A stretch of DNA of 64,000 bases from the NCBI GenBank assembly GCA_964478335.1, contig CAYZIC010000001.1, positions 3,638 through 67,637 on the forward strand. Direction: 5' to 3'. The notes below the pieces were generated by a model. It ran no database searches, was not told where the DNA came from, and was given only the letters and a program-made list of their open reading frames with translations. Below are positions 8,867-48,794 of this stretch, one piece after another (the first letter of the stretch is position 1; each line of letters starts with the position of its first letter). The stretch comes from an uncultured Lentisphaeraceae bacterium (GTDB taxonomy: Bacteria > Verrucomicrobiota > Kiritimatiellia > RFP12 > DVOR01). The position numbers and the translations under genes are program-made.

Positions 8867-8942
8867 GCCGGTTTAGCTCAGTTGGTAGAGCAGCTGATTT
8901 GTAATCAGCAGGTCGTGGGTTCAAGTCCCTCTGCCGGCTCCA
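8867..8942 (+). tRNA. tRNA-Thr (anticodon UGU), CCA encoded
   Basis: The sequence folds by hand into a cloverleaf: acceptor GCCGGTT/GCCGGC, T-arm GGTTCAAGTCC, anticodon loop TTTGTAA. Confidence 0.9.
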
Positions 8943-8950
8943 GTTTATAT

Positions 8951-8990
8951 CCCTCATAGGTCAATGACTTATGGGGGATTTTTTTGCGCC
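8951..8990 (+). terminator. rho-independent terminator after the tRNA
   Basis: An 8-bp stem (CCCTCATA/TATGGGGG) with a 12-nt loop is followed by ATTTTTTTG. Confidence 0.5.
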
Positions 8991-9639
8991 TTGGTGGTGG
9001 GGCAATTTGACGAAATTGGTGCGTTTTGACGCTGAAAACGGCTATTTAGCCCCGTATGTCTCTTGTTCTACTTTAATGACTAAGCGGCGCAATCGCTAGG
9101 ATTTGGGGTTTGGGATTTGGGGAGACTGTTGCATCCACTCCCCGCCTCTGCGTTATACCTGATTACGACTTGGTGCCATGAGGAGGCTCTGCCTCCAGGA
9201 AGAGTCGCTACGCTCCTACTTTTTCTACTTCCGATCCTCTATAATCGTACAAGAACCGAAAATCAGGCTTGAGAGATTACCTAAGGGGCGAGTCAAAGGT
9301 CAGCAGACTCTCAAATCGAGGGTAAGGCAAGGTTTATTTGCGTCCCTAAAGGAGGCTGCGTCATCTAGTTCGAGTCTAGATTGCGAGTGCGAGTGATGAG
9401 GACTTGCCTCATGCTCCGCTTATTTACCCACGCCCTGCTTATTGAGCCCCATACCCCGCTAGCGGTCTGCGACGGAGCGGCTACGCCTCTAGATTGTGGG
9501 ATTTGGGATTCAGTCACTGATAGCGGCCTGTGGCCTTAGAGGCTCCCGCAGGTCGCTTGTGGAGGATTCCCCAATCTCCAAATTCTAAACCCTACCCCCC
9601 GTAGAGATGACCTTGGTCCTCGCCACGACAGTTGCGATA

Positions 9640-9685
9640 CTCCAACCTTTTATACTTCCGACCAATTAAAATTAAACAAGAGTCG
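9640..9685 (+). mobile_element. solo ISL3-family terminal inverted repeat remnant (copy 1 of 4)
   Basis: The motif CCAATTAAAATTAAACAAGAG is shared with three copies at 33.6-34.3 kb. Its outward end reads GGCTCTTG on the reverse complement, the ISL3 IR terminus. Confidence 0.45.
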
Positions 9686-9976
9686 AAAAGGTTCAAGAAA
9701 TATGCCCAAAAGTTACACTTCCCAACTTTTACACTGGGTCTATGGTTCATTTTAAGCGTTCAAGAATGCGTTATCTCATTGATAAAACGCGTCCACCCTT
9801 CTAATTATTAAGTTTCCTTATCTTTTTCCTTGCGTTTTTGTTTAACTGTGATAACATACGCCTCGTTTTTGAGATTCTTTCTGGATTGATCAAATAGCAA
9901 GGCCTGATTTGGCTGAGTCTAGGCGTATTTTTCGTTTGTCGCTATCATCAAAATCTCATCACAAATAAGGATTGTT

Positions 9977-11410
9977 ATGTATACACAGTTTGAGTTTCCA
10001 ACCGACCGCACTGGCTTATTGTCCAAACTAACAGAGCGTAGTGCAATGCCTCACGGAGACATGATGTCGATGATGATGTCTAAGCAAGAAGTCGACACAC
10101 AGGGGGTGTGGTGCAAGACGCAGCCTAGCTCAAATGGGATGATGCTTTATATCCATATTCCTTTTTGTGTGAGTCGGTGTGCATTTTGTGGATTTTATGC
10201 GCATAGCACGTCCGATGAGAGTCGCTTGGCTTATATTGATCTCTTGATCAAGGAGCTCCAGCAGGAGGCCGATCGTGGTGTCTACACGGCTCGTCCGATT
10301 GATGTGGTTTACTTTGGTGGTGGCACGCCGACGACGTTGTCAGGGGATGAGTTTCGCCGGTTGATCGGCTTTATCTACACGCACTTTACTATTGCATCAG
10401 ATGTGGAATTCACTGTTGAGGGGAGGATCTTTGGCTTTGATGATGATCAGGTGCGTGCATGCGTGGAGTCTGGTGCGACACGATTCTCTTTTGGTATTCA
10501 AACGTTTGACACAGTGCTTCGTCAGAGCTTGGGTCGTCGTAATTCTCGTGAGGAGCTGATATCACGCTTGCATCGCATCAAGGATATCTGTGGCGACAAG
10601 GTGGCGCTCGTAGCGGATCTCATCTATGGTTTACCAGGTCAGACACAATCGGATTGGATGGAAAACCTGCGCACGGTGCGTGACGATGTGCCGCTTGATG
10701 GGGTGGATCTCTATCGCTTGAAACTTTTCCCTGGCTTGCCGATAACCAAGCGAATGGAGCGTGAGGGAGCTTGGTCTGAAGAGGAGCTGATCTTGCGTCA
10801 TAGTGAGGCATGTGACTATCTGCAGGGCGCCAATTGGCGACAGCTCTCCTGCACCCACTGGGGGCGCAATTCACTTGAGCGCAATCGTTACAATCAGTGG
10901 GCTAAGACAGATATCGACCTCATCCCCTTTGGCTGTGGAGCAGGTGGTGCAATTGGCGAGAGCTCTTTTATGCAGACGAGCAACATCGACAAGTATAAGG
11001 AGATGGTCAATGCAGGTCTTAAGCCTTTGCAGATGGTGATGCCTAAGATGCCCTATCATGCGCAAAAGGCTCGCGTCGTGGATCAAATGGAGCGCGGCTA
11101 CTTTGTGCCCTCGACCAGTCCTGATGTCGACTTTGCGCCGCTATTTGACAATTGGCAAGCTGCGGGGCTGTGCACGGCTGATGGTGATGATCGATTTCGA
11201 TTGACTCGGTTGGGTGAATGCTATCAAGTGAAGCTCTCCTCAATGCTGACGGGTTATATTTTTGCTGGTGCAGCTGGGATGGGGGGAGTAGGTAGCATGA
11301 TGGGTATAGGGGGTAAGACACCCGACAGCCCAGCAACACAGGGCAAGGGCTTGATGGAGCTCTTTGCACAGATGGCATCTGGTAAAGAAACGCCCAAGAT
11401 GGGAGAGTAG
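9977..11410 (+). CDS. HemN/HemW/ChuW-family radical SAM enzyme (oxygen-independent coproporphyrinogen oxidase-like)
   Basis: The CxxxCxxC radical-SAM motif (HIPFCVSRCAFCGFY) and the GGGTP motif are present, with a HemN_C-like C-terminal domain. An N-terminal Met-rich extension is also present. Confidence 0.8.
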   Translation: MYTQFEFPTDRTGLLSKLTERSAMPHGDMMSMMMSKQEVDTQGVWCKTQPSSNGMMLYIHIPFCVSRCAFCGFYAHSTSDESRLAYIDLLIKELQQEADRGVYTARPIDVVYFGGGTPTTLSGDEFRRLIGFIYTHFTIASDVEFTVEGRIFGFDDDQVRACVESGATRFSFGIQTFDTVLRQSLGRRNSREELISRLHRIKDICGDKVALVADLIYGLPGQTQSDWMENLRTVRDDVPLDGVDLYRLKLFPGLPITKRMEREGAWSEEELILRHSEACDYLQGANWRQLSCTHWGRNSLERNRYNQWAKTDIDLIPFGCGAGGAIGESSFMQTSNIDKYKEMVNAGLKPLQMVMPKMPYHAQKARVVDQMERGYFVPSTSPDVDFAPLFDNWQAAGLCTADGDDRFRLTRLGECYQVKLSSMLTGYIFAGAAGMGGVGSMMGIGGKTPDSPATQGKGLMELFAQMASGKETPKMGE

Positions 11411-11414
11411 GCTT

Positions 11415-11966
11415 ATGCAGGATCGACCCTTTTATTGGCAAACAGAAGAGCTCATCGTGATTGGGCTTTTTACCGCACTGAGCAAGGTGTCGTCTCTAAT
11501 TATTTCCTTGCTGGGAGGAGGGCCAAATCCCATTACTTTGATGCTTAAGAATGGTATCGCCACGGCACTTTTGATTGTGATGGTGGCGCGAGTCTGTAAG
11601 TTTGGCACATTGGCTCTGTATACGCTCGTGGGTCAGATGATCACCTTTTTGATTGCGGGGGGCTCGTTGATTAGCCTTTTGCCAGGCTTTCTCTTGGGTG
11701 CGATCATCAGCGATGGTCTGATTGCAATCATGGGAGGCTACACCAAGATGCGAGCTGTGGTCTGTGGGGTACTCTTTTACGACTTGTTTGGTCGCATGCT
11801 ATCGCTCTCTTTCTCCTATTTGACGGTGCGTGAAAATCCTGCGCTCTTTATCTTTGGGGCGGCCGTGGTGCTTTTGGGTTATTTAGGGTGTCTCTTTATT
11901 GGTGTGCCCTGTGGTGTTAAGTTTGTAAAGGAGCTCCGCCATGCCGGAATTATTCGAGAGATTTAA
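11415..11966 (+). CDS. ECF-transporter substrate-specific (S) component-like membrane protein
   Basis: 183 aa with about 5-6 TM helices. It starts 5 nt after the upstream stop and overlaps the T component. Confidence 0.5.
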   Translation: MQDRPFYWQTEELIVIGLFTALSKVSSLIISLLGGGPNPITLMLKNGIATALLIVMVARVCKFGTLALYTLVGQMITFLIAGGSLISLLPGFLLGAIISDGLIAIMGGYTKMRAVVCGVLFYDLFGRMLSLSFSYLTVRENPALFIFGAAVVLLGYLGCLFIGVPCGVKFVKELRHAGIIREI

Positions 11967-12834
11967 CTCAAATAGACAGCCTACGAGCGATCGCTTTGAC
12001 ATCCGCACGCGCATCTTGATCTCGTTGATTGTTGCAGCGACAGGGATTTACTTAAGTGCGACAGGACCGCTACTTGTGATGGTTGTAGCGACTTCACTCT
12101 ATGTCCTTGCGACACGTCGATATAAGGTCATTTTCATGACTTATGTGGGCATTACTTGTATGATTGCAGTCTCGATGGCAATTATTTTAATCTCATTTAA
12201 ATTGGCTGAGATAGCCTTTGATGGTACGCCAACTGCGCAGACTGTGGCGATCTTTAAGCAGGTGCTAGTAGACAACTATCATACGCCATTTATTCGTATG
12301 ATTCCCTCGGTTAACGTGATGCTTGCTATTAGCTTAAACTTCCAAGTACAACGTTTTGTTAATGCGATGAAGAGCGTCCGCTTTCCGCGAGTAATCTTTT
12401 TGCCGTTGACAGTATTTTGTCGCTTTATCCCCGAATTTGTCTTAAATATCCGTCAATTGCGCGATGCGGTGATGATGCGAGGGTTTGCGCTAACGATCCA
12501 ATTTGCCGTGCTCCACCCTATTCAGACACTGCGCTTGACAGCGATCCCTTTGTCGATGCGCACACTGCGCATGGCTGACAATCTGGCCATGGCAGCTGAG
12601 ATGAAGCGTATTGGCTACACCCGCCAACCCACGCATTATAATGAATTATACTTCAGCAAGTTTGATTTTGGCATGCTTGCTTTGACGCTGATCATCGCCA
12701 CCAGTGCGATACTCTGGCAAAACACCTATCCCAAGGGTGTCGGTTATGGACCTGGAGGTATGATGTCGATGAAACCGCCCGTAGCAGCACAGCAGACGCC
12801 TGAAGCCACTCCCAAGACTGGAGAAAATCAATGA
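11941..12834 (+). CDS. ecfT: ECF transporter transmembrane (T) component, CbiQ/EcfT family
   Basis: A polytopic membrane protein with the C-terminal EcfT signature AVMMRGFAL (AxxxRG). It overlaps the ATPase gene start. Confidence 0.65.
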   Translation: MPELFERFNSNRQPTSDRFDIRTRILISLIVAATGIYLSATGPLLVMVVATSLYVLATRRYKVIFMTYVGITCMIAVSMAIILISFKLAEIAFDGTPTAQTVAIFKQVLVDNYHTPFIRMIPSVNVMLAISLNFQVQRFVNAMKSVRFPRVIFLPLTVFCRFIPEFVLNIRQLRDAVMMRGFALTIQFAVLHPIQTLRLTAIPLSMRTLRMADNLAMAAEMKRIGYTRQPTHYNELYFSKFDFGMLALTLIIATSAILWQNTYPKGVGYGPGGMMSMKPPVAAQQTPEATPKTGENQ

Positions 12835-14315
12835 GCACTGTCAACGAGGCCCCCAAGATGTCCCATATCGATACTGCGACTACGTCGATAGATGCGGTGT
12901 GTGCAAAGCATCTGGGGTACAACTATCCCTTTCAATCAGAGCCAGCATTGTACGATCTAAGCTTTTCGCTGCGCCGTGGCGAAGCGATGCTGATTACAGG
13001 CCCCAGTGGATGTGGCAAAACAACGCTCTTGCGAATCCTTAATGGGCTTATCCCTAACCATTTTAAGGGTACGGTCACTGGTGAGCTAACCGTCGCTGGG
13101 ATGACCTATCCAACGCCCTTGGCAGAGGTCTCTGAGCACGTAGGCACAGTCTTGCAGAATCCAGATGAGCAATTCATGGCGACGACCATCGAGGAAGAGG
13201 TCGCACTCGCACTCGAGTGGCAATGCGTCTCTCATGATGTCATGCATCAGCGTGTTGGAGAAGCGTTGCGAATCCTCAACCTCTCTGACATTGCTACGCG
13301 CTCGGTCTTTAACCTCTCCCAAGGCGAAAAGCAAAAGTGCATCATCGCATCAGTCATCGCCGCCTCTGCTGATATCGTCGTGATGGATGAGCCTACCGCC
13401 AATCTCTCGCCTGATGCTACGGTATCTCTTGCAGAGATTTGCCTCGCCCTTAAGCAACGTGGTGTGACGCTGGTCATTGTCGATCACCGGCTCTATTGGC
13501 TCCGTGGGATTCTTGACAAGCTACTCGTGCTCTCAGAGGGGCGACAAGTCTACTATGCGGATCGCACCGATGGCATCGATCCGCTCGATCGACTCAATGG
13601 CTGTGGCGCACTTGCTCAGTGGGGGTTACGCCGCACCGATGTCAAGCGGCTCTCTTTCCCCGCTTGCTCTGAGGCGCAAGCCTTTGCGATTGATGTCACA
13701 GGTTTAACCTTTACCTATCCACGTGGCGACACCATTTTTAACAACTTTAGCACCCATATCCCAAGTGGCGCAGTAACTGCGATTGTCGGCGAAAATGGTG
13801 CTGGTAAGACTACCTTTGCCAGACTCCTCTGTGGACTCAACAAGGTCAAGACTGGGGCTATCCTCTTTAAGGGAGAAAAGCTCACCCCAAAGGTAAACCG
13901 CATGCGAACCGCCTTTGTCATGCAGCAGATGGAAGTCCAGCTCTACATGCGCACCGTCTGTGAAGAGCTCACGCACTCAGCCACTCACAAAAGTGCCGAT
14001 GATGATCGTGATGCGCGAGTTGCCCATTGGATGGACGTTTTTCAAATTGCCCACCTCGCCCAGAGGCATCCTCACTCCTTATCGGGAGGCGAAAAGCAAC
14101 GCCTCGTCATCGCCTGTGCCTTGATGAAACAACCTGAGCTCCTCATCTTGGACGAACCGACCAGTGGACTAGATGGACGCAATATGCACATTATTGCAGA
14201 CCAATTAAAAGCATTTTCTCAAGCAGGAGGCGCGATCCTCCTTATCACACACGACCTTGAGCTCCTCGAGCTCATCGCTGATTATCAACTCGTTATCGAA
14301 GGAAAGCACAAATGA
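12831..14315 (+). CDS. ecfA: ECF/ABC transporter ATPase with fused duplicated A domains (EcfA1-EcfA2)
   Basis: Two Walker A sites (GPSGCGKTT, GENGAGKTT) and two ABC signatures (LSQGEKQ, LSGGEKQR) are present. Its start overlaps the T-component stop. Confidence 0.85.
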   Translation: MSTVNEAPKMSHIDTATTSIDAVCAKHLGYNYPFQSEPALYDLSFSLRRGEAMLITGPSGCGKTTLLRILNGLIPNHFKGTVTGELTVAGMTYPTPLAEVSEHVGTVLQNPDEQFMATTIEEEVALALEWQCVSHDVMHQRVGEALRILNLSDIATRSVFNLSQGEKQKCIIASVIAASADIVVMDEPTANLSPDATVSLAEICLALKQRGVTLVIVDHRLYWLRGILDKLLVLSEGRQVYYADRTDGIDPLDRLNGCGALAQWGLRRTDVKRLSFPACSEAQAFAIDVTGLTFTYPRGDTIFNNFSTHIPSGAVTAIVGENGAGKTTFARLLCGLNKVKTGAILFKGEKLTPKVNRMRTAFVMQQMEVQLYMRTVCEELTHSATHKSADDDRDARVAHWMDVFQIAHLAQRHPHSLSGGEKQRLVIACALMKQPELLILDEPTSGLDGRNMHIIADQLKAFSQAGGAILLITHDLELLELIADYQLVIEGKHK

Positions 14316-14812
14316 AAGCCGCAATCGTATGTTCCTCTAAGACCGGCAACACGATGAAAGTCGCCCAAGCCATCCACGCCGCCATGCCCGCTGGTACCGA
14401 TCTCTTTGCTGTCGAAGAAGCCGCTGCTGCTGATGGCTATGATCTCATCGTCATGGGTTTTTGGGTCGATCGCGGTATGCCCGACGAAAAGGCCAAGCAG
14501 TACATGAAGACCATCGTAGGTAAAAAGGTCTTTACCTTTTTTACCCTCGGAGCAGACCCTGACTCAAATCACGCAAAGGAGTGCATGGCGAAGTGTTGCG
14601 AATTTTATGGTGCAGACTGCTCCGAAATCGGCAACTTCCTCTGCCAGGGTGCCATTGACCCTAAACTCATCGAGGTGATGAAAAAAATGACCGATGGTCC
14701 TCATGCGCCCACTCCTGAGAGCTTGGCTCGCTGGGCGCGCGCTGCATCTCACCCAAATACTGCAGACTATGAGGCGGCCGCGGCTGCTATCTCTGCCGCT
14801 TTAGCCAACTAA
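14312..14812 (+). CDS. short-chain flavodoxin
   Basis: The N-terminal FMN phosphate loop SSKTGNT is present. The protein is 166 aa and its ATGA overlaps the ATPase stop. Confidence 0.75.
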   Translation: MKAAIVCSSKTGNTMKVAQAIHAAMPAGTDLFAVEEAAAADGYDLIVMGFWVDRGMPDEKAKQYMKTIVGKKVFTFFTLGADPDSNHAKECMAKCCEFYGADCSEIGNFLCQGAIDPKLIEVMKKMTDGPHAPTPESLARWARAASHPNTADYEAAAAAISAALAN

Positions 14813-14911
14813 AGACTCTCCGCAAATCATGCGGTAAACCCTGTGGTGTCCCAACGCTGTTGTTGATCAGAGACACCCATAGTAAAAAACAAAATAAAAA
14901 GGAAACTCATC

Positions 14912-16012
14912 ATGAGTATAAGTAAAAAATCTGGTTTCACGTTGGTGGAACTCCTCGTGGTCGTGGCAATCATCGCCGTTATTGGTGCTGGCGTCGCTGT
15001 GACCTATCAACGCCTTGATGACAAGGCCAAAACGTCCGTCGAAATCTCCGACGTCTCTATCCTCAAAAAGGTCATCAAGCACTGGAGCGCAATCAATGAT
15101 TACAAGTTGGTCAACGAGATGGACTCTTTGATCGATAGTCAAGGCAATCTCTACACTGCTGGGGACTTCGAAGGTATGGGTGGTTCAGTTGCCAATAAAT
15201 ATGGCAAAGGCTTAAATGGTCCCTTTGGTGCGACGCTCATGGTTGAGCAGGCGCCAGATGAGATCGTCGAGACCTTGGCTACCAGTGGCATGACCCTCAC
15301 TTATAAGCACATCGCTGATGCGACTGATGCGAATGACTCAACGTGGGAAGCCAATATGATGGGCGGTGGTGTTGATGTCAAGAATACCCGCTGCACGCTC
15401 GTCGGTAAAGACGCATTGGTAGACGCTAATGCTCTCGTGGACGCAGGTAAGAAGACCGCTGACGATTTCGTTAATGGTGCCATTACCATCAATAAAAAAG
15501 AGTACAAAACTCTTGACGCGTGGCAAAAGGCCTACAGCGATGCCGAGAAGATTACAGATTCCAACCCTGTTGACAAGCTCGCATTCATCTATCCCGGTGG
15601 CGGTGCTTCGATGGCTATGGGACCTAACACAATCACAATGCCGATGAACTTGACCGATGAAATCATTAGCAACTGTGGGTTCGATCCTGAAGACATTGTC
15701 AAACCCGGCGAAGAAGCTAGCAAGCCGACGGCTAAGTACTACTTGATCGCAATGGGTCTGGGACGTTTTAGCTCGATCTATAGCGGTAAGTCAATTCGCG
15801 CAGATGCGCCTGCTTATGGCAAGCGTCAAGTGCAGAACGCTGGTGCTTACAACCGCTATGTTGCTGTAATCCGTATCCCTGTCGGTGGCTACAACTCGAT
15901 GACGGGGGCAGGTGAACCCGCCCAAGTGATCGACGTTTTGACGCCTCAGGGTTACTCCGTGGCTGCTCTCCGCGACAACTTGGTTAAGGACGAGGACAAG
16001 ATCCGCGACTAG
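14912..16012 (+). CDS. prepilin-type N-terminal cleavage/methylation domain protein (long pilin/pseudopilin)
   Basis: A class III signal KKSG|FTLVELLVVVAIIAVIGAG with Glu at +5 is present. An AAGGAAA RBS precedes the start. Confidence 0.8.
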   Translation: MSISKKSGFTLVELLVVVAIIAVIGAGVAVTYQRLDDKAKTSVEISDVSILKKVIKHWSAINDYKLVNEMDSLIDSQGNLYTAGDFEGMGGSVANKYGKGLNGPFGATLMVEQAPDEIVETLATSGMTLTYKHIADATDANDSTWEANMMGGGVDVKNTRCTLVGKDALVDANALVDAGKKTADDFVNGAITINKKEYKTLDAWQKAYSDAEKITDSNPVDKLAFIYPGGGASMAMGPNTITMPMNLTDEIISNCGFDPEDIVKPGEEASKPTAKYYLIAMGLGRFSSIYSGKSIRADAPAYGKRQVQNAGAYNRYVAVIRIPVGGYNSMTGAGEPAQVIDVLTPQGYSVAALRDNLVKDEDKIRD

Positions 16013-16082
16013 TACTGATACACGATGCCCAGAGTCACCATCTGGTGTCTCTGGGGCATTTCTTTTAAATAAGGATTAACTG

Positions 16083-16589
16083 ATGAAAGCTGCAATTATA
16101 TGTTCTTCTAAAACGGGCAATACGATGAAGATCGCCCAGGCGATTCAAGCCGCCATGCCCGAGGGCACGCCCCTCTTCCCCATTGCCGAAGCACCAGACC
16201 CGGCTGCATATGATTTCATCATCATGGGATTCTGGATAGATAAGGCTGCGCCTGACCGCAAGGCAAAGGCCTACATGAAGACGCTCACAGACAAAAAGGT
16301 CTTCACCTACTTTACCCTCGGCGCAGTGCCGCATGGTGACCATGCACAACGCTGTTTACGTAATAGCACCAAAGCGTATGGTAAGGGCTGCACCGAGGTG
16401 GGCACCTTCCATTGTCAGGGAGCCATTGATCCTAAGTTGATCAAGATCATGCGGTGGCTATTCCCCTTTGGCCCTCACGCCAATACCGAAAAGAATCGTG
16501 CACGGTGGGCTGAGGCTGCCAAGCACCCAAATCAAGATGACTGCTCTGCTGCGGTAGAGGCTATCAAGCACGTTTTACAGGCACTCTAA
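16083..16589 (+). CDS. short-chain flavodoxin, paralog of 14312-14812
   Basis: About 60% identical to the first flavodoxin, with the same SSKTGNT loop. Confidence 0.75.
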   Translation: MKAAIICSSKTGNTMKIAQAIQAAMPEGTPLFPIAEAPDPAAYDFIIMGFWIDKAAPDRKAKAYMKTLTDKKVFTYFTLGAVPHGDHAQRCLRNSTKAYGKGCTEVGTFHCQGAIDPKLIKIMRWLFPFGPHANTEKNRARWAEAAKHPNQDDCSAAVEAIKHVLQAL

Positions 16590-16623
16590 GCACAGTTGCG
16601 TAAATGAGTGGGAAAGGCTTTAG

Positions 16624-17442
16624 ATGATGGAGCAATGTTACCGTTTAGGATTTACCTTGGTCGAGCTACTGGTCGTGATTGCGATTGTGGCGGTCATCGG
16701 GGCTGGGGTATCGGTCTACTATGGTCGTGACAATGTCGATCGTGGTAAACGAGAGATGACACGCCATGAGATGGGGCAAATCAGGCAGGCCTTTCAACAA
16801 TGCTATGCGGATAATAGCATTCAGCTCATGCGCGAGATCACAGAGCATGATTCATTAAAACCCTTGCCAACAACCTCTTTTATCAATACTTTTAAAGCTA
16901 AGCCAGATCAAACCAATCGCCTCTATGGGATGGTGAATTTTTTTGAAAGGTATGGTCTCTGGTGTCTCAAGCAACCTGCTATTCGAGATGTTGCCTCAGG
17001 GAGATTGATTACCTTTAAACCTTTTGATGCGATGGTAGGTACAGGCTGGCAGGGGCCTTATATCTCAATGAATGCTGGTGCGGCCTGCGTTGTGGATGGA
17101 GACAACTGGGTCAAGCCAGACCCTGACAAAACCACTGAAATCATCCTCCCACAAATTGCCACGCGCTATGAGGGGATTTATCGCATAGTCTACTTTGAGC
17201 ACTGTGAGGATGAGCGTGATACTAGCGAGCCCATTTACCGTCGTCTCTTGTTGGTCTGTGCGGTGAATGATGAGGCGATCGATACTGCTGATGAGTTGCG
17301 CAGCTATTCAGGTAATCGCCGCAAGGGCGATAATGCCTATCCGCTGAACCTCGACACGGGGGTGATTCGTACCTACGATGAGAGCAAGGGCCTTTTCTTT
17401 GTTGAGCTACTCAATCTTGATCAATGGAGGATACAGCAATGA
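16624..17442 (+). CDS. prepilin-type N-terminal domain protein (pseudopilin)
   Basis: RLG|FTLVELLVVIAIVAVIGAG is near-identical to the N-terminus of the 14912 gene. Confidence 0.75.
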   Translation: MMEQCYRLGFTLVELLVVIAIVAVIGAGVSVYYGRDNVDRGKREMTRHEMGQIRQAFQQCYADNSIQLMREITEHDSLKPLPTTSFINTFKAKPDQTNRLYGMVNFFERYGLWCLKQPAIRDVASGRLITFKPFDAMVGTGWQGPYISMNAGAACVVDGDNWVKPDPDKTTEIILPQIATRYEGIYRIVYFEHCEDERDTSEPIYRRLLLVCAVNDEAIDTADELRSYSGNRRKGDNAYPLNLDTGVIRTYDESKGLFFVELLNLDQWRIQQ

Positions 17443-18458
17443 TGCGCCCATGCATGGTTGGCCGTTCGGGGATGACGCTCGTTGAGCTCATGGTTGTCTT
17501 GGCAATCTTAGCTGCCGTGCTGACGACGGTTTCGGTTTCAACGATAGCCTCGCGAGACCGTCAGCGAGTCGAGAAGACTCAGCGTCAAGGGCGCGCGATG
17601 GTAGAGGCCCTGACGCGTACTGATGGGCTCTCTTTTATTTCCGACTTTGGTCGTCTCCCTCAGACGATTGACGAGGTCAAGTGGCTGTGCCAGCGGGCGA
17701 TCTTTAATAGCACATCGACGATACATGAAGCCCCCCTGTATCAACTCTTGCCGATCTGGCGTGCAAACACCGCCTCATCTACAGGAGCCGTATCACTAAA
17801 GACTTTTATTGGCAGCTCCAATTCCGTTAAGACAGCACTCGAGGCGGCACATTTGGGGGCGGGCTGGCGTGGACCATACACCTCTGCGGTGGTGCTACAG
17901 ACTGAAACAGAGGAGGACAAGACCGAGTCTCGTCTCTGTGATGCATTTGGCGGGGATTGGGTCTTTGAGGAGGGATCGGGCACGACTGATGCTCAGCTAA
18001 TTAGCTATGGCCGTGACCAGCTCAAAGACGACGCGGGTCAAGAGCGCAGCTGGCAAGATAGTGATCAGCGATTCGCCATACACCAAGCTCAAATCTCCCA
18101 GCAAGTTGAATTGGCTGTGTCACTCACCTGGGGTGAGGAGCAATTAGCATCTGCATCGATCTATTACTTTGAGCCAACCCTCATTGGTAAAAACACGTCC
18201 TATAGCATGGACATCCAGTGCCTTTATCATACGACTCAGACAAATCCAGCATCCTTTGTGATTAGCCCTGCGCAACCTGTGACCCTGAATGGGAATATCC
18301 CCAATCCATCAGACTCAAGTGGTTTGACAATTGGTCTGCGAGCGATTGTTGTCACTGCCACAGATACAAACAGCAACAAAGCGATCTCTGCGGTGCAGTA
18401 TGTGCATTTAAAGCCGGGCACCAACCACCTCGACATTTCCCTTTATCCACTAAAATAA
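17424..18458 (+). CDS. prepilin-type N-terminal domain protein (pseudopilin/minor pilin)
   Basis: SG|MTLVELMVVLAILAAV has the prepilin hydrophobic segment with E5. Confidence 0.7.
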   Translation: MEDTAMMRPCMVGRSGMTLVELMVVLAILAAVLTTVSVSTIASRDRQRVEKTQRQGRAMVEALTRTDGLSFISDFGRLPQTIDEVKWLCQRAIFNSTSTIHEAPLYQLLPIWRANTASSTGAVSLKTFIGSSNSVKTALEAAHLGAGWRGPYTSAVVLQTETEEDKTESRLCDAFGGDWVFEEGSGTTDAQLISYGRDQLKDDAGQERSWQDSDQRFAIHQAQISQQVELAVSLTWGEEQLASASIYYFEPTLIGKNTSYSMDIQCLYHTTQTNPASFVISPAQPVTLNGNIPNPSDSSGLTIGLRAIVVTATDTNSNKAISAVQYVHLKPGTNHLDISLYPLK

Positions 18459-18473: not shown

Positions 18474-19850
18474 ATGAAAAAGCCCAAACCCACCTACGCA
18501 CACACCCTCTTGACCTATGATGGCGAGCGGTGGTCTTATTATGCTGGCGCTACTCATGAGATGATCTTACGTCAATCGTTCATTGGTGCAGCCCAGGTCA
18601 TCCCTGCTGAAATCATCAGCGAATTACAGGCTGCTCATACGACGCATACGCGTTTATTGCTCGCTGGCGAGGTACATCGACTCGAAGTGGGATTGCCTAC
18701 GAATTTAAGCTTTAAAGAGGTTAATCGCATCATCACCTCAGAGCTGGCTGACATGACCAATGTTGATGTTGCAGAAATGATCACAGCAGGTGCCACGATC
18801 CCTTATCCTGGGGTTGCGGAACCAATCGTGCTGACGGCAGCATTTGTTAAGGATCGTATTACTGCGCTTCACCAACAGTTGATCGATGCGGGCGTATTGA
18901 TTACTGGGGTGGCATCTTTGGAAATGGCTTGTATGGCGACTTGGATGACACAATCCAAGCACACTGAGACGCTCTTGATCATGGGCCATACTCACGATCT
19001 GGTGATCCCCGGTAGGCGTCGAGGTGAAAACCCTGGGCCGACCTCTCTCTCTGGCGGTATGCGCTACCTCGAAATGGATGAGCTCGATTGGCTCAATAGA
19101 CTTCAGCGCGGCGTGCGATTTCTTGATAAACAGCAGCCTTGCTCAGTCTTATCATTGATGGTGCGCGAGGGGCCCACTGCGGTCATGCGTGCCGGGGGCT
19201 TCTCAGAGACGGTTACCATTGAGCGTGAGCCATTCTTGAATCGCGTCATCAATGAGGCCGCATTGGTTCGGGCCAATCTCAAGGGTGCGCTCTTACCAAT
19301 GGTCAATCCCTATGTCCCTCGTAAGCGCTTTAGCCATGCGTGGATTGTCGTGCCTACGCTCTTGCTCATGGCTTCTCCTTATCTCTACTGGGGTGTCAAT
19401 GTCCTCTATCGCAATCACCACGCTACTGAGTATCAGCAGGATGCGGCTCCCTATTTGCCTTTGGAGCAGGAGCTAAAGACGGCGCGTCAGGCTAAACAGT
19501 CGGCAACGTGGGCACTGCAACAAGAGCAGGCAAACTTTAATGCGCTGGTCAATCGACGGAAGCCCTTGGCTGCTTTTATCCATACGGCCTACTTCTTTTG
19601 CAAATTTGCTGGCGTGACGGTCTCGCTAGAGAAGATCGAGGAGCAGGATGGTAAGATCTTGGTCTCAGGGACGATGGGAGACCCGGAGGATAGACTGCGC
19701 ATAAACCAGTCGCTCAAATCGTTTACAAAAAAGTATGGTCTCGTCATTATCGAGAATAAGCTCTCAGACTCAATTGATGAAGAGGGCAACCCTGTTTCAC
19801 ACTTTGACTTAACTCTGTCATACCAAAATTTGAAGGATCCTGCCCAATGA
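18474..19850 (+). CDS. pilus assembly protein, PilM-like cytoplasmic domain fused to a PilN-like TM/coiled-coil region
   Basis: A cytoplasmic region of about 290 aa is followed by a single TM (AWIVVPTLLLMASPYLYWGV) and a coiled-coil periplasmic part. Its position ahead of PilO/PilB supports the call. Confidence 0.45.
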   Translation: MKKPKPTYAHTLLTYDGERWSYYAGATHEMILRQSFIGAAQVIPAEIISELQAAHTTHTRLLLAGEVHRLEVGLPTNLSFKEVNRIITSELADMTNVDVAEMITAGATIPYPGVAEPIVLTAAFVKDRITALHQQLIDAGVLITGVASLEMACMATWMTQSKHTETLLIMGHTHDLVIPGRRRGENPGPTSLSGGMRYLEMDELDWLNRLQRGVRFLDKQQPCSVLSLMVREGPTAVMRAGGFSETVTIEREPFLNRVINEAALVRANLKGALLPMVNPYVPRKRFSHAWIVVPTLLLMASPYLYWGVNVLYRNHHATEYQQDAAPYLPLEQELKTARQAKQSATWALQQEQANFNALVNRRKPLAAFIHTAYFFCKFAGVTVSLEKIEEQDGKILVSGTMGDPEDRLRINQSLKSFTKKYGLVIIENKLSDSIDEEGNPVSHFDLTLSYQNLKDPAQ

Positions 19851-20710
19851 ACCTCTCCCTCAAAAAGACTAATAGTTGGCACTGGCTCGCCATTGCATTG
19901 ATCCATGGTATTGCCTTTTCTTATTGTGGCTGGCGTGCTTGTCTCGACCGTGTCGAGACGCAATGCCTACCACAAATCGCCAAAGAAGAGCAACACTTGA
20001 TTCAATTAAAGGCTATGGACGCATTTGAGCCAGATCGTCTTGATCGTGAAACCAAGCGTCTTGAGCAGCAACTTGACACCTTGCAAAAACGCCTGGATCA
20101 GGCAGGCACCAAGCCTATCCCTCAGGGTAAAGATGCGGTCGTGGTGATCAAAAATAGCATCGATCAGGCATTGGGGCATCATCAGCTACAGGTGGCTAAG
20201 TGCAATTTAAGCCTCTCTCTCTCGACGCAAGATCTGTCACGTGAGGCCTCACCCAAGGCAATTCCGCAACCTCGACCAGTCCAGCAAAAAGTGCCTCGCC
20301 TCTCTCAGGAGGAATTTATCCTCTCCTATGATTTAGATAAGATGCTCGCATCGTATGAGCAAATCCCCGATAAGGCACTGCGTAAGCAAATGGTCCAGGA
20401 GGAGAAGCGGCGCTCGCATCGGATCTTGGCACAGCAGGCCAAACTGAGAGCGCAAGGTGTCACGATCAAAGCAAAAGCTAATCCAGCTCGGGTCGTACAA
20501 GCACCCGTGAAGCCGACCTTTAAGCCCAATCTGCCCTTTAAAACTGTAGAGATCAACTATGTCGTGCGGGGGGACTTTAGGCAGATGTTTCTCTTTCTCG
20601 TCAAGCAATCGTTTTTAAAGCAGTCCTACCACTTTAAGCAGATCCAGGTCGTGCAGTTCGATGATGGTGAGATGGGCATGGCATTTGTTTTACAGGTGAA
20701 TTATCTATGA
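19847..20710 (+). CDS. PilO-like bitopic pilus assembly protein
   Basis: An N-terminal TM and coiled coil are present. The gene overlaps its neighbours at both ends (operonic). Confidence 0.45.
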   Translation: MNLSLKKTNSWHWLAIALIHGIAFSYCGWRACLDRVETQCLPQIAKEEQHLIQLKAMDAFEPDRLDRETKRLEQQLDTLQKRLDQAGTKPIPQGKDAVVVIKNSIDQALGHHQLQVAKCNLSLSLSTQDLSREASPKAIPQPRPVQQKVPRLSQEEFILSYDLDKMLASYEQIPDKALRKQMVQEEKRRSHRILAQQAKLRAQGVTIKAKANPARVVQAPVKPTFKPNLPFKTVEINYVVRGDFRQMFLFLVKQSFLKQSYHFKQIQVVQFDDGEMGMAFVLQVNYL

Positions 20711-22203
20711 CACACCCAAACATGACACAGGTTGACTTACGTCGTATCGCCCCATCACAGGCGATCCTTGACCTCGTACCTGCCAAGGTGGCTCGCGGGC
20801 TCAATGTATTGCCGATTTATCTCGATGAGCAGATGCTGACAGTCTGCGTGGCTGACCGAGCGAACTATTCAATCCAAGAGAAAATCGAGCGAATCCTCCC
20901 ACAGTATAGTGTGCGCTTGGTCGAGCCGCTCGAGCCGCTCTCCTTACGAAAGGCTTTGCGGGATAACTATCCTGATGCACTGCTCAATGGAGAATTGGAT
21001 TTACCAGAAAATTTATTCTTTTACATCCTCAATCGAGCACTGACTCGTAATGTCTCAGATATCCATATCACGCCGACAGAATCAGGCGCTCGGGTGCGAT
21101 TGCGTCTTGATGGTAAGCTCCATGCCGATCGGGTGATCCCTGCAGAAACTGCCGCAGAGCTCTCCTCCTATGTCAAGGTCGCTGCAGGGCTAGATATTTC
21201 GGAGAAGCGTGTTCCTCAAGATGGCAATATCGATACGCGTATTGGTGGGCAGGAGGTCAGCTTGCGCGTGGCGACCGTGCCAACGATTTATGGAGAGCAT
21301 ATCACGCTGCGTATCCTCAGCCAAGCTGCTGAGGCACTATCGTTGGATTCACTAGAGAGCCTCGGGATGCATCGTAAGCAATTGGCACTTTTTACCGCAG
21401 CCTTGCAAGCACCTAATGGTGTGGTAATTATCTCAGGGCCGACAGGCTCAGGCAAGACGACGACGCTCTATGCTGCACTGCGCAAGCTAACTCAGTCTGA
21501 CACGCTCCATGTCATGAGCATCGAGGATCCAGTAGAGAAACCTGTCGCTGGGGTCACTCAGATTAAGATCGATAGCAAGCAAGATCGAGTAAGCTTTGAG
21601 GGTGCGCTGCGTAGTGTCTTGCGTCATGACCCAGATGTCGTCATGGTGGGTGAGGTGCGTGACGGGGAGACTGCTACGACGGCTTTGCGTAGTGCGCTTA
21701 CGGGGCATTTGGTTTTTACGACGCTGCACACCAATAATGCGCCTGGCATTTTGACACGATTGGTGGATTTGGGAGTACCTGCCTATTTAGTCGCAGCGAC
21801 CTTACGCTTGGCGATCGCTCAGCGACTATTGCGCAGACCCTGCCACGAATGCATGTCATGGGTGCTTGCTGATGAGGCGACTTGTCGGGTATGTGGATGG
21901 GACCCTACGCATCCTCCCAAAATCCCCAAGGTGCACGGCTGTGCCTATTGTGGTATGAAAGGCTACTCCGGGCGTACTGCCATCTATGAGATCTTGCCCA
22001 TTACCGATCAAGTCCGTAAGTTGCTTTTGTCTGGCAAAAGCGAAATGGAGATCTATCAGTATCTCCGTGGCCGCCAGCCTGAGTTAACTCTGATGGGTGA
22101 TGGACTAGCCAAAGTCATCGAGGGAGAAACGACGCTAGAGGAGCTGCGCTCGACCGTTTGTGAAGAGGGCGATTCACTCGATGAGAATAAGGATCTCTTA
22201 TGA
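20707..22203 (+). CDS. pilB: type IV pilus assembly ATPase (GspE/PilB family)
   Basis: Walker A GPTGSGKTTT is present. The Asp box, Walker B and His box pattern are present. A tetracysteine Zn motif CHEC...CRVC...CAYC is present. Confidence 0.85.
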   Translation: MTHPNMTQVDLRRIAPSQAILDLVPAKVARGLNVLPIYLDEQMLTVCVADRANYSIQEKIERILPQYSVRLVEPLEPLSLRKALRDNYPDALLNGELDLPENLFFYILNRALTRNVSDIHITPTESGARVRLRLDGKLHADRVIPAETAAELSSYVKVAAGLDISEKRVPQDGNIDTRIGGQEVSLRVATVPTIYGEHITLRILSQAAEALSLDSLESLGMHRKQLALFTAALQAPNGVVIISGPTGSGKTTTLYAALRKLTQSDTLHVMSIEDPVEKPVAGVTQIKIDSKQDRVSFEGALRSVLRHDPDVVMVGEVRDGETATTALRSALTGHLVFTTLHTNNAPGILTRLVDLGVPAYLVAATLRLAIAQRLLRRPCHECMSWVLADEATCRVCGWDPTHPPKIPKVHGCAYCGMKGYSGRTAIYEILPITDQVRKLLLSGKSEMEIYQYLRGRQPELTLMGDGLAKVIEGETTLEELRSTVCEEGDSLDENKDLL

Positions 22204-23444
22204 TTACGGATATGCCGACCTATAAGTATGTGGGAGTCAAGGCGAGTGCGAAGGTTTCGGGCACGCTTGCAGCGGAGAATGAATCGCACCTCAGAGGGCT
22301 TTTGCGAGAGCAGGGGATTCTCCTTATTTCGGCCAAGCAGATCAAAATCTCGGGTAAGGATACGCTTAAAGTGCGTGCGAAATGGGAGCGTCACATCTCG
22401 AATTTTTTTATCAAACAAACGGAAATCGAGCAGGCGATGTTGCAACTGGTCATCCTGCTCAAAGGGGACATCGCCATTGTTGAAGCGTTTGAGCAGGCGG
22501 CCCGATTGGCTAAGGGCTACATGGCATCTGCTCTTTTTGAGGTCGCCTTAAGTGTCAAGCAGGGGAGCTCGCTCTCTAAGGCGATTCGATTGGCTTTACC
22601 ACAACTCGGTGAGCTCTATCAGGGATTGATTGGTGTGGGTGAGGTCAATGGCTCGCTGCCTCAAATGTTTGCCTATTGCGTGAGGTTGATGCAACAAAAA
22701 CGCAAAATGCGCAATAGCATGATCCGCGCGATGACCTACCCTGCGATAGTCGTCTTGCTAGGGGCTGGGGTTGGTTATTATGTGAGCACTGTTTCAATTC
22801 CGCAGATTGCATCGGTGATGGGGGGCGAGTCCGATAAGCTCCCCCCTGTGACTCGGGCTCTACTTGATACCAGTGACTGGATTGCAGACAAAGGATATAT
22901 GCTCATTATCTATCCTTGCCTCGTGACGATCATCCTACTAGTGATACGACTATTTAAGCCATGTGCTTTGGTAATGGATCACCTATTCCTTTGGATTCCG
23001 ATTATTGGCAAAGCGTTATGCTTCGCAGAGAATGCTCTCTTTAATAAAACCATGGGAATCTTGATCCGCAGTGGGATCTCTGTGGTCGAGTCGCTCGATC
23101 TGATCGAGGCGACGCTGACGAATGCTTTTTACAAGACTCAAATCGATGGTATCAGACGAGCTGTCCGCGCAGGTAAGATGTTTTCCGACGGATTGGCTCA
23201 ATCGGCGTTGCAGCGACTCTCGCCACTAACCCCTGCGCTGGTGCAAGTCGGTGAAAGCTCGGGAAATATGGATGAGGGCTTACACTATGTCGGAGAGTAT
23301 TATGAGGATGCTCTAGAGCGCCGTCTTGATTTGATGGCTAAACTGATCGAGCCAACTCTCGTCGTCGTCGTCGGGGGGATGGTTGCCTTTGTCTATGTCG
23401 CATTTTTCATGGGCATGGCCGCAATGAATACCGCTACACTTTAA
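22200..23444 (+). CDS. pilC: type IV pilus platform protein (GspF/PilC family)
   Basis: 414 aa with two repeated GspF-type domains and 3 TM helices. It overlaps the pilB stop. Confidence 0.8.
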   Translation: MITDMPTYKYVGVKASAKVSGTLAAENESHLRGLLREQGILLISAKQIKISGKDTLKVRAKWERHISNFFIKQTEIEQAMLQLVILLKGDIAIVEAFEQAARLAKGYMASALFEVALSVKQGSSLSKAIRLALPQLGELYQGLIGVGEVNGSLPQMFAYCVRLMQQKRKMRNSMIRAMTYPAIVVLLGAGVGYYVSTVSIPQIASVMGGESDKLPPVTRALLDTSDWIADKGYMLIIYPCLVTIILLVIRLFKPCALVMDHLFLWIPIIGKALCFAENALFNKTMGILIRSGISVVESLDLIEATLTNAFYKTQIDGIRRAVRAGKMFSDGLAQSALQRLSPLTPALVQVGESSGNMDEGLHYVGEYYEDALERRLDLMAKLIEPTLVVVVGGMVAFVYVAFFMGMAAMNTATL

Positions 23445-23479: not shown

Positions 23480-24079
23480 ATGATATCTAAATACACGTCT
23501 CTTATCCTCTTAGGCATGGCAACGATGGTTGCTATACCCATGGATCTCTCGGCACAAGAGCCCTCCAAGCCCAAGGCGCCTGTAGCACAGGCTAGCGCAA
23601 AAGTCTCGCAAAAGAATAAACCTGAGCCAGTGCCATTAGTCCAGCCTCCTCAAACGTTGCTCGACGCAGAGGGCAACCCAGAGCTCGAGCTCATTAACCC
23701 ATTTGCTAAGGGGCGCTCTCGTGAGGTTGAAACCGATGGCTCTATGGGGAGATTGCAACGAACGACCCTAGGTGAAGTCTCCAATGATTTTGCCTTGCTG
23801 GCGATCGTCGTTCCTGAAGATGATACAGTTGAGCCGATGGCTCTGATCCGTCAAAATCAGGATGCAGGCCCTATTTTAGTCCGGCCTGGCGATCTCATCC
23901 GTACCCGTGAGCCTACTAAGCGAGGCAATAGATGGGGGCGGAGCAAGGAAGAATTGGCACGAGAAAAGCTTAAAGGCAACTTCACTTTTTACCTCTACAT
24001 CAAAAATATTTTACCGACACATCTCGAGGTTTATCATAATAAGAAAAACCCCAATGAGACAACCATCATCACCCTCTAA
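23480..24079 (+). CDS. PilP-like periplasmic pilus assembly protein
   Basis: A signal peptide is present. The gene lies immediately upstream of the secretin. Confidence 0.4.
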   Translation: MISKYTSLILLGMATMVAIPMDLSAQEPSKPKAPVAQASAKVSQKNKPEPVPLVQPPQTLLDAEGNPELELINPFAKGRSREVETDGSMGRLQRTTLGEVSNDFALLAIVVPEDDTVEPMALIRQNQDAGPILVRPGDLIRTREPTKRGNRWGRSKEELAREKLKGNFTFYLYIKNILPTHLEVYHNKKNPNETTIITL

Positions 24080-24110
24080 TTTAAAAGAACCAAAGAGAAA
24101 GTTACACATT

Positions 24111-25916: not shown

Positions 25917-26590
25917 TCGATGATGCTCCATGTTGTCACGTGCTCCCCACATTGCTCAAGCATACACTCATCATTGTCTGTGTGGGCATGATGAGCAGTG
26001 GGTGCGCACTAACGCAACCAACACCTCCAAAGACTGAGCATCCCCCACTGTCTGAGCAAGAGGCTCTCCAGCAGGCCATTACGCTCGTCGCAGAGGGGCT
26101 CCCCAAACAAGCTGTGCCACAATTACTTGCGATACGGGACAATACTCAAGATCCCGCCATCAAAGCCAGTGCAATTCAAACATGCGCAAAGGCTTTTGCT
26201 GCACAAGGTGATTTTAAATCAGCAATCAATGTCCTCAGTCCCTTGCCCCCCCTTGTCTTGCGTGAGGAGCAGGCAATCTCAAATGCGATGGCTGGTGAAT
26301 ATTACTTGCGCATGGGGGCTTACAAGCTCGCAATCCCGTGCATTGAGCGAGCACTCTACAATGAGCTCCCTAAAAAGCACACAGATTGGCGGGCTGCGGC
26401 TTTCTTCAATTATGGTAAGTGCGCCCTCTCGCTCAATATGCCACGACGTGCGCAGGCTCTCTTTAGTGAAGCGCAACTACAATTTAAACACCTCAATCAC
26501 CCGCAAGCGGTCATACTGTGCCAAACGCTCCTCACAACAATCGACCGTGCAATACTCCAACAAGAAAGCCCCCCCCCCCATGTCAAATAG
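25913..26590 (+). CDS. TPR-repeat lipoprotein, PilF/PilW-like pilotin
   Basis: A lipobox (MSSGC) and TPR-like helical repeats are present. The gene overlaps the secretin stop and the pilT start. Confidence 0.5.
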   Translation: MIDDAPCCHVLPTLLKHTLIIVCVGMMSSGCALTQPTPPKTEHPPLSEQEALQQAITLVAEGLPKQAVPQLLAIRDNTQDPAIKASAIQTCAKAFAAQGDFKSAINVLSPLPPLVLREEQAISNAMAGEYYLRMGAYKLAIPCIERALYNELPKKHTDWRAAAFFNYGKCALSLNMPRRAQALFSEAQLQFKHLNHPQAVILCQTLLTTIDRAILQQESPPPHVK

Positions 26591-27706: not shown

Positions 27707-28447
27707 ATGGAAACGTTTATTGCTTTGGTACTTTTTGTCGCATGGTTGCAAACATGCTTAAAATTCGCCTTGATTTCTCGCATATGGGGATTTTTATTTA
27801 TTGTGATTATCGGGTGTTTGCCCTTTGCCAATCACTCCCTATTGATCGCCAGCAGTTTGCAAGAGCAGATGGCGATGGTATGCTCGGAATCATTTTTACA
27901 AGCTTGGTGTGTCATTTTGGTGGTGCAGGAGTTTCTCGTCTTTATTATGGGGCTCTCGCTCTTATCCGCTTATCAGTTAGAAGAGAAAATACACTGGTGG
28001 AAAATGGTTGTTTTTGTGCCGTCATTTTTAATTTATCCTGGCGTGGTCTTTCTCCAGATGCAGAGCTATAATCACTTTGTGATGGCTGACTTTGATTGGG
28101 TTTGTGCTGGAGTAAGTGCCGTCTTGGTATTCACCTCTTTAGCTGTGATTGAGGGAATGCGTTGGTATAAACGCCACGATTTTGATGGTGCGATTTTATT
28201 ACTCTTTAATAGTGAGTTTGTCATTACTATATTAGCTGTCTTTTTACCAATTGCAGCGGTCGCATCTGACCGCCTGCAGATTGGTGAATGGCAGATTAAT
28301 TGGCAAGACGCTCAGCCATTACTTTATCTGTTAATCCCTGTATTGCTCTCTGCGTGTGGGTATGCGCTATGGCAATTGGGGGTGCAGATCTATTACCGCC
28401 GTATACATCATTATCATCAAGTGAATCAAAGGAATAACCATGTCTAA
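27707..28447 (+). CDS. polytopic membrane protein of unknown function (first gene of the chelatase operon)
   Basis: 246 aa with about 6 TM helices. The sequence is AT-rich relative to its flanks and overlaps the next gene start. Confidence 0.5.
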   Translation: METFIALVLFVAWLQTCLKFALISRIWGFLFIVIIGCLPFANHSLLIASSLQEQMAMVCSESFLQAWCVILVVQEFLVFIMGLSLLSAYQLEEKIHWWKMVVFVPSFLIYPGVVFLQMQSYNHFVMADFDWVCAGVSAVLVFTSLAVIEGMRWYKRHDFDGAILLLFNSEFVITILAVFLPIAAVASDRLQIGEWQINWQDAQPLLYLLIPVLLSACGYALWQLGVQIYYRRIHHYHQVNQRNNHV

Positions 28448-29364: not shown

Positions 29365-29365
29365 A

Positions 29366-45939: not shown

Positions 45940-46137
45940 TGCGGGGTCAGGATTTTGCGTGGGCTCTGATAGCTGCTGATACCCAGCTGACGCGGTCGGC
46001 TCCTGGCGGGATGCTGGCGAGAGCTGCGGTCTCAACCCTGATGACGCTGGTCTCTGGGCGCGGCTTGTCGCCCCAGCGGCTGCGGGCTCCTAGTTGGCCC
46101 GCTGCGCTTTTTGTCGGCACTTTGCTCATTGGTACTC

Positions 46138-48790: not shown

Positions 48791-48794
48791 GGCG

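Follow-up and report, generated by a model that had tools for sequence, protein, structure and literature searches.

Introduction

The closest described counterparts of the genes considered here come from Fusobacterium nucleatum, in which the last gene of the hmu heme operon encodes HmuF, a protein with a paralog, FldH (McGregor et al., J Biol Chem 2023, PMC10404700). Both proteins bind flavin mononucleotide (FMN) and heme, hand heme to the radical-S-adenosylmethionine (radical-SAM) enzyme HmuW and reduce anaerobilin by hydride transfer, and as they show no semiquinone stabilisation they are not classical one-electron flavodoxins (PMC10404700). Heme importers of the energy-coupling factor (ECF) type are known from Gram-positive bacteria (references in PMC11282960), and the function of the heme dechelatase HmuS has been described (PMC12583661). 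We analysed a 64,000-nucleotide stretch of contig CAYZIC010000001.1 (the window) from a host-associated member of the Kiritimatiellota, in which two flavodoxin genes, Flav1 and Flav2, alternate with genes for prepilins, Pil1, Pil2 and Pil3, where an operon for anaerobic import and degradation of heme meets a gene cluster resembling that of a type IVa pilus. This locus variant is undescribed: its genes for anaerobic heme degradation run on into a type IV pilus cluster, and a gene for a TonB-dependent heme receptor is absent from it.

The alternating order had been read, in an original prediction made from the DNA letters, as a tandem duplication of a flavodoxin-pilin segment. We consider it probable instead that the flavodoxin gene alone was copied, in an old, lineage-specific, single-gene duplication within the window's own lineage. 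This judgement applies to the best explanation taken whole, i.e. the heme operon/pilus junction, two flavodoxins of HmuF/FldH type, Flav2 as a single-gene copy and three pilins that took no part.

Results

Flav1 (166 aa, plus strand, 14312-14812) and Flav2 (168 aa, plus strand, 16083-16589) are true paralogs, 59% identical over 165 aa (E 1e-71), in line with the value of about 60% first proposed. The predicted gene order likewise holds, Flav1 being followed on the same strand by Pil1 (366 aa, 14912-16012), Flav2, Pil2 (272 aa, 16624-17442) and Pil3 (344 aa, 17424-18458, with an alternative start at 17439 that gives an ATGA overlap with the Pil2 stop). For comparison, loci were mapped by tblastn in metagenome-assembled genomes from gut and rumen that carry the labels Kiritimatiellae, 'Lentisphaeraceae' or Verrucomicrobia, including Candidatus Spyradenecus, with ~20 kb inspected per genome, giving ~17 distinct related loci (L numbers below). 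Wherever the upstream sequence extends far enough, a single PF12641 gene immediately precedes Pil1-Pil2-Pil3, in some loci with a small ORF (open reading frame) between, and in none of the ~17 does a flavodoxin lie between Pil1 and Pil2. As the relatives have one flavodoxin yet the three pilins, it is only the flavodoxin count that rose, to two in the window against one elsewhere, while the pilins are three against three. The small conserved ORF between flavodoxin and Pil1 (76-97 aa, no Pfam match; L006:10525-10803, L007:7193-7486, L003:7224-7454) is absent from the window, where the Flav1-Pil1 spacer is just 99 nt.

At the DNA level similarity between the two copies starts exactly at both ATGs (14312-14555 against 16083-16326, 72.5% over 244 nt), with a second match further on (14606-14680 against 16377-16451, 73% over 75 nt). 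Comparison of 14200-16082 with 16013-18458 by blastn at word sizes 11 and 7 reveals no similarity outside the flavodoxin coding sequence, neither in the spacers nor in the pilin bodies, a test that is weak alone because a synonymous divergence (dS) of ~2 would erase neutral flanks anyway. Indeed, Flav1 and Flav2 differ by a dS of ~2.1 (saturated) and a nonsynonymous divergence (dN) of 0.33 (dN/dS ~0.16), with 63.5% overall nucleotide identity, values that point to an old duplication and to purifying selection on both copies. Because synonymous sites are saturated the duplication breakpoints are beyond recovery. A neighbour-joining tree (167 columns) pairs Flav1 with Flav2 as sisters at a bootstrap of 70 and places the pair in a clade supported at 100; the longer branch is that of Flav2. 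The GC content of Flav2, overall and at third codon positions (GC3), resembles that of its neighbours, i.e. is native-like, and Flav2 retains all family-invariant residues and the heme-ligand histidine. Since Flav2 is under purifying selection, keeps these residues and has evolved faster than Flav1, sub- or neo-functionalisation is suggested, as for the HmuF/FldH pair, and Flav2 would be a diverging second copy as FldH is relative to HmuF.

The sequences assign both proteins, as new members, to the HmuF/FldH-type proteins of PF12641 (Flavodoxin_3; E 2.7e-49 for Flav1 and 4.8e-44 for Flav2). Apart from a weak PF12724 match this is their only family, and neither falls into PF00258 (Flavodoxin_1), the family of classical electron carriers. 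The sole PDB sequence match of Flav1 is 8G64, FldH of F. nucleatum (E 4.6e-14), whose heme-ligand His134 is paired with Flav1 His131 by the phmmer alignment, an equivalence given by alignment only; its counterpart in Flav2, His132, is invariant in an 11-sequence clade alignment. Flav2 was the flavodoxin modelled (Flav1 being 59% identical to it), and the AF2 model (pLDDT, the predicted local distance difference test, 94.3) shows a flavodoxin core with the helical cap that in HmuF/FldH forms the cleft for heme. Its top Foldseek match in the PDB is again 8G64 (E 1e-12, template modelling (TM) score 0.81/0.80 over 172 columns), whereas classical flavodoxins reach a TM of 0.6 at most. Residues 8-14 of both proteins read SSKTGNT, which is the FMN phosphate-binding loop S/T-x-T-G-N-T, and across 47 homologs T11, G12 and T14 are invariant and N13 nearly so. 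Identity with BilS (NF045594) was considered and rejected, with scores of 101.7 and 83.4 bits against a cutoff of 155 and no BilR-like gene among the neighbours.

A profile scan of metagenome contigs returned 80 flavodoxin loci, in 62 of which heme genes (HutW-like, TonB-dependent receptor, ChuX, ECF S/T or ExbBD) lie within 5 kb of the flavodoxin, a HutW-like gene doing so in 35 of the 80. Fourteen loci are without any heme gene, eight of these being contigs shorter than 3.2 kb. With 62 of 80 loci carrying heme genes near the flavodoxin, the tie of PF12641 to anaerobic heme catabolism is general.

The operon upstream of the pilins begins with a HutW/ChuW-type class C radical-SAM methyltransferase of anaerobic heme degradation, a probable anaerobilin synthase (plus strand, 9977-11410; PF04055 and TIGR04107). 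The TIGR04107 rSAM_HutW model matches it with 398.0 bits (cutoff 400, E 4.5e-119) over model positions 8-417 of 419, the next family being HemW at 150 bits, and orthologs with 51-61% identity occupy the matching operon position in the relatives. On the same strand follow an ECF transporter S component of the Trep_Strep/MptD family, putatively heme-specific (11364-11966; PF09605, TIGR02185), the real start of which is probably downstream of the listed TTG and which neighbours HutW in relatives too, a T component (CbiQ; 11941-12834; PF02361) and a fused A-A' ATPase (12831-14315) with two ABC_tran domains and matches to ECF_ATPase_1 and ECF_ATPase_2. The start of Flav1 overlaps the ATPase stop as ATGA, and a flavodoxin right after the ECF ATPase gene is also seen in L001, L006, L007, L009, Pontiella L108 and others. 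Because of this overlap, and because the HutW-ECF-flavodoxin order recurs in relatives and outside the clade, Flav1 is ancestrally the last gene of the HutW-ECF operon, which bears out the suggestion that the first flavodoxin belongs to the upstream radical-SAM operon. Its translation would be coupled to that of the ATPase gene. By homology to HmuF/FldH, Flav1 most likely binds FMN and heme, passes heme to HutW and reduces the reactive product, anaerobilin, by hydride transfer, the heme having presumably been imported by the ECF system. Scans with Rfam and for tRNAs found only a tRNA-Thr (8867-8942) and no riboswitch ahead of the heme operon, and the ~1 kb between this tRNA and HutW (8943-9976) holds no convincing gene, Rfam match or Fur-box-like site.

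Heme module and pilus cluster are adjacent in two arrangements among the relatives. Type A loci (e.g. L006, L007, L011, L017 and L019-L024) share the window's order, HutW-ECF-flavodoxin-pilus cluster. Type B loci (L003/L012, L015/L105, L016, L018, L025-L028, L106 and L107) have the order DUF3793-Flavodoxin_1-flavodoxin-pilus cluster-PilT-HutW-ECF, with 0-40 nt between PilT and HutW in L105 and L106, a Sel1-repeat gene between them in L107, and no second PF12641 gene after the relocated HutW-ECF genes in any type B locus. In a tree of concatenated PilB and PilC types A and B form separate clades and the window is a third deep branch, so that the two modules are adjacent across three deep lineages, through one rearrangement. 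The idea that type B arose from type A by simple cyclic permutation was dropped, since a single rotation would not put DUF3793-Flavodoxin_1 where it lies in L013. In Pontiella sp. L108, L001 and L009 HutW-ECF-flavodoxin is flanked by a TonB-dependent receptor and ExbB-ExbD-TonB, without pilus genes, and no TonB-dependent receptor, ExbBD, TonB or ChuX gene is present in any pilus-linked locus. Beyond PilT the type A relatives differ from each other (PEP-CTERM protein, YajC, type I restriction enzyme, glycosyltransferase).

The DUF3793 protein and a classical Flavodoxin_1 gene accompany the locus in L003:5577-6640, L015:4975-6026, L018:3894-4942 and L013:18967-20058, preceding the PF12641 gene in type B and following PilT in L013. 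Flavodoxin_1 genes are found near HutW in L001 and many human-gut contigs too, and their product may be the one-electron donor to the radical-SAM cluster.

Each of the window's pilins has its own orthologs in the relatives: Pil1 in all of them, with 42-49% identity over ~390 aa, Pil2 with 37-49% over its full length, and Pil3 with 29-34% over ~350 aa. All three carry the N_methyl motif. The near-identical N-termini that had been noted for Pil1 and Pil2 are present (AVIGAGVAVTY and AVIGAGVSVYY), but the likeness ends at residue 77, with 42% identity up to that point and no significant similarity between the globular parts. In every relative Pil1 and Pil2 both carry the AVIGAGVAV segment, which for that reason is older than any event in the window's lineage. 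The three pilins are ancient, distinct genes, uninvolved in the duplication. Pil1, the first and best-conserved pilin gene, probably encodes the major subunit; in structure comparison its head domain (AF2 model, pLDDT 91) shows no structural relative and no likeness to a hemophore or heme-binding fold.

Two ENA contigs, each single and unverified, contain an apparent in-frame fusion of a PF12641 flavodoxin with Pil1 (L109:83-1777, P0185; and P0188). Compared with L017, L019 and L021, L109 has a clean deletion of ~85 nt that takes out the stop codon of the flavodoxin, the spacer and the first base (A) of the pilin's ATG (AAG GTG AAA), and P0188 has a different read-through junction. The topology of such a fusion would be feasible because the prepilin leader is cytoplasmic.

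Flav2 is placed downstream of a stem-loop with a U-tract, an intrinsic terminator or attenuator 3' of Pil1 (plus strand, 16024-16067), and 34 nt before Pil2. The RNA folds with -25.1 kcal/mol (z -4.7), a stability reached by 0 of 200 shuffles, and a comparable GC-rich hairpin is present 3' of Pil1 in most relatives. A consensus scan for promoters and terminators gave counts at the level of shuffled sequence and missed this real hairpin. The Pil1-Pil2 spacer ranges from 20 to 265 nt in the relatives, some with tandem palindromic repeats, holds no gene in any of them, and is a tolerant spot for insertion. Such repeats (GGACCACTATAGTGGTTGACCTC...) widen it to 192-265 nt in L017:7984-8175 and L022:7899-8163. 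Flav2 would be transcribed with Pil2 and the assembly genes, either by terminator read-through or from an unmapped internal promoter. A Fur-box scan (at least 13 of 19 consensus matches) found none in the relevant spacers, which neither supports nor opposes iron regulation.

The remainder of the cluster, all on the plus strand, comprises two clade-specific conserved assembly proteins (458 and 287 aa, 18474-20710), presumed to form an inner-membrane platform and kept in order in all relatives; a PilB/GspE-type assembly ATPase with an MshEN domain and a PilC/GspF platform protein (20707-23444; PF00437, PF05157, PF00482); a 199-aa conserved protein, a secretin (ORF from 23907, probable start 24111; PF00263) and a TPR protein (23480-26590; TPR family matches), in an order conserved in relatives; and a PilT-family retraction ATPase (26601-27644, approximate start; TIGR01420 pilT_fam, 403 bits, cutoff 319), which closes the cluster in relatives as well (54-66% identity). 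Together with the N_methyl pilins the T2SSE, T2SSF, Secretin and pilT_fam matches provide type IVa pilus parts. The NCBIfam GspE/PilB and GspF/PilC models match PilB and PilC below their cutoffs, the 458-, 287- and 199-aa proteins have no Pfam or NCBIfam match, and the scanned window ORFs yielded no prepilin peptidase.

Directly after PilT lies an HmuS-type heme dechelatase module (plus strand, 27707-33448; PF01618, PF09919, PF02514) of a 246-aa protein, a MotA/ExbB-like protein, a DUF2149 protein and HmuS itself (29327-33448, 1373 aa), which matches PDB 9d26 'HmuS heme dechelatase' with E 4.9e-293 and ChlH with 3.7e-117. The window's pilus cluster thus has heme-utilisation genes on both sides, the HutW operon and this module, and by the ORF list all 22 genes of 9977-33448 run in the same direction with a largest gap of ~100 nt. 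No HmuS module lies within 10 kb of the pilus cluster in relatives, and the window ORFs covered by the scans showed no hmuR-type receptor.

Elsewhere in the window, a minus-strand segment (37180-41237) has the [FeFe]-hydrogenase maturase HydF adjoining a TRAP (tripartite ATP-independent periplasmic) transporter (DctP, DctQ, DctM), genes consistent with a fermentative anaerobe. The minus strand of 46000-64000 carries co-directional ORFs mostly without a Pfam match, together with a lambda-family portal protein (62243-63898) and a ClpP-like protease (61062-62243), and looks like a prophage or prophage remnant. PADLOC returned no match, and a defence-system reading was dropped.

Discussion

Tandem duplication of a flavodoxin-pilin segment followed by divergence would account for the alternating gene order, which is real, for the 59% identity of the flavodoxins and for the 77-residue N-terminal stretch, 42% identical and including AVIGAGV, that Pil1 and Pil2 share. 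We nevertheless regard it as very improbable. The single-flavodoxin relatives already have all three pilins as full-length orthologs of the window's; the Pil1/Pil2 N-terminal motif is in every relative; the globular domains of Pil1 and Pil2 are not detectably similar, full-length paralogy being confined to the flavodoxins; and alignment of the DNA blocks, proposed as a way to the module's breakpoints, yields similarity within the flavodoxin coding sequence only. An alternative that keeps the pilins out of the event is that Flav2, as a gene of HmuF type, came by horizontal transfer from a different heme locus of Kiritimatiellota-like character and entered the pilin spacer. This would suit the roughly equal distance (54-59%) of Flav2 from Flav1, L001, L003 and L006, the bootstrap of just 70 for its sisterhood with Flav1, and the variable, repeat-bearing Pil1-Pil2 spacer of relatives. 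However, Flav2 sits within the clade with a bootstrap of 100 with Flav1 as its nearest tree neighbour, its GC and GC3 equal those of the neighbouring genes, no mobile-element genes or repeats flank it, and acceleration after duplication explains its long branch equally well, so that we judge such a transfer improbable. Duplication in situ of the flavodoxin gene alone therefore appears the better account of Flav2. Several observations nonetheless weigh against the explanation we prefer. The Flav1-Flav2 sisterhood has only that 70% bootstrap on a 167-column neighbour-joining tree, and L001 is nearly as near to Flav1 (64%), making transfer from a related lineage possible. No closer relative of the window's lineage was found, leaving the insertion undated and its breakpoints not visible. 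The HutW score falls 2 bits short of the curated TIGR04107 equivalog cutoff, the strong terminator between Pil1 and Flav2 leaves the transcription route of Flav2 and the downstream pilus genes unsettled, and the conserved flavodoxin-Pil1 junction in type B, where HutW-ECF lies elsewhere, stays unexplained.

A further reading takes the heme module, flavodoxins included, and the pilus cluster as one functional unit, the secretin and retractile pilus taking part in heme acquisition, e.g. by heme capture or by outer-membrane passage in place of a TonB-dependent receptor, and the site of Flav2 reflecting selection for co-expression. A flavodoxin gene directly precedes Pil1 in every informative pilus-cluster locus (~17 distinct), the linkage spans three deep lineages, and in type B the halves of the heme module tightly bracket the pilus cluster with the sole flavodoxin still ahead of the pilins, while flanks outside the heme-pilus unit are not conserved. 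TonB-dependent receptor and ExbB-ExbD-TonB genes neighbour HutW-ECF-flavodoxin in Pontiella and others and are missing from the pilus-linked loci, the HmuS module after PilT extends the window's run to 22 co-directional genes with no gap above 100 nt, and the two contigs with apparent flavodoxin-Pil1 fusions point the same way. Against this, types A and B are each monophyletic, which leaves one documented rearrangement, and common descent could account for a large part of the synteny; the Pil1 head resembles neither a hemophore nor a heme-binding fold; no shared regulatory motif resembling a Fur box turned up; a strong terminator splits Pil1 from the remaining cluster; the HmuS module is not beside the cluster in relatives; TonB-dependent receptors may lie outside the ~20 kb inspected per genome; and the literature offered no precedent, nothing relevant being found on a pilus-heme link or on Kiritimatiellota pili. 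Functional coupling of this kind is unlikely, though we do not think it negligible. Its fullest form is a long shot: that the heme-acquisition locus of host-associated Kiritimatiellia would include, as an integral part, a retractile type IV pilus with a secretin, which would replace the TonB-dependent receptor/ExbB-ExbD-TonB of Pontiella and others, that heme or heme proteins would be captured by this pilus or brought by it through the outer membrane, and that Flav2 would be a footprint of co-expression. For the flavodoxins, a role linked to the pilus had been offered as one way to account for their position. Nothing speaks for a part of theirs in pilus biogenesis proper; a link between the heme module as a whole and the pilus is possible, because the two gene sets remain neighbours throughout the clade.

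Under single-gene duplication, the odd cytoplasmic 'redox' genes among pilins are explained by known biology, as an HmuF-type flavodoxin of anaerobic heme degradation copied into the adjacent operon. The analysis also supplies names for genes of uncultured gut and rumen Kiritimatiellia, i.e. anaerobilin synthase, putative ECF heme importer and HmuF-like heme chaperone/reductase, with the HmuS dechelatase in this genome, whose organism would have two independent heme-iron routes. If the heme-pilus adjacency is functional it would point to a novel route of heme uptake in bacteria that have an outer membrane; otherwise it is a warning example of synteny conserved without shared function.

The system closest to the window's flavodoxins is HmuF/FldH, with which they share the flavodoxin core and helical cap (no structure but 8G64 matches strongly, with a TM of 0.81, and no other PDB entry matches in sequence), the conserved heme-ligand histidine, a flavodoxin gene (here Flav1) placed last in an operon with a HutW/HmuW-type radical-SAM heme-degrading enzyme, and two paralogs per genome, one in the operon and one elsewhere. 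Sequence identity is only 28-31%. The importer is of ECF type where Fusobacterium has hmu transport genes, and the second paralog lies inside the pilin operon, 1.8 kb on and past Pil1, where that of Fusobacterium is at an unrelated locus. Like the ChuW/HutW loci of Escherichia coli O157:H7 and Vibrio cholerae, the window combines heme uptake genes with a class C radical-SAM methyltransferase (TIGR04107), an enzyme that needs a flavodoxin-type partner. However, the enterobacterial ChuW loci have ChuX/ChuS/ChuY (HutX in Vibrio), a TonB-dependent receptor and a periplasmic-binding-protein ABC importer, whereas the window's partners are an ECF importer and a PF12641 flavodoxin, with no receptor in the locus. 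BilS, the partner of the bilirubin reductase BilR, is likewise a PF12641 protein concerned with reduction of a linear tetrapyrrole, but the window's proteins score below the NF045594 cutoff and no BilR-like reductase gene is nearby.

The Gram-positive ECF heme importers, LhaSTA of Staphylococcus lugdunensis and SiaFGH of group A Streptococcus (as cited in PMC11282960), resemble the window's importer in having S, T and A components beside heme-utilisation genes. The window organism, in contrast, has an outer membrane, and the likeness to LhaSTA and SiaFGH is one of gene neighbourhood. The pilus cluster, finally, parallels type IVa pilus clusters (PilA, PilB, PilC, PilQ, PilT) in its GFTLxE prepilins, PilB/GspE, PilC/GspF, secretin, TPR protein and PilT-family ATPase. 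It departs from them in platform proteins that match no family, a Pil1 head without structural relative and the very large size of its pilins (272-366 aa), and in being flanked by genes of heme catabolism.

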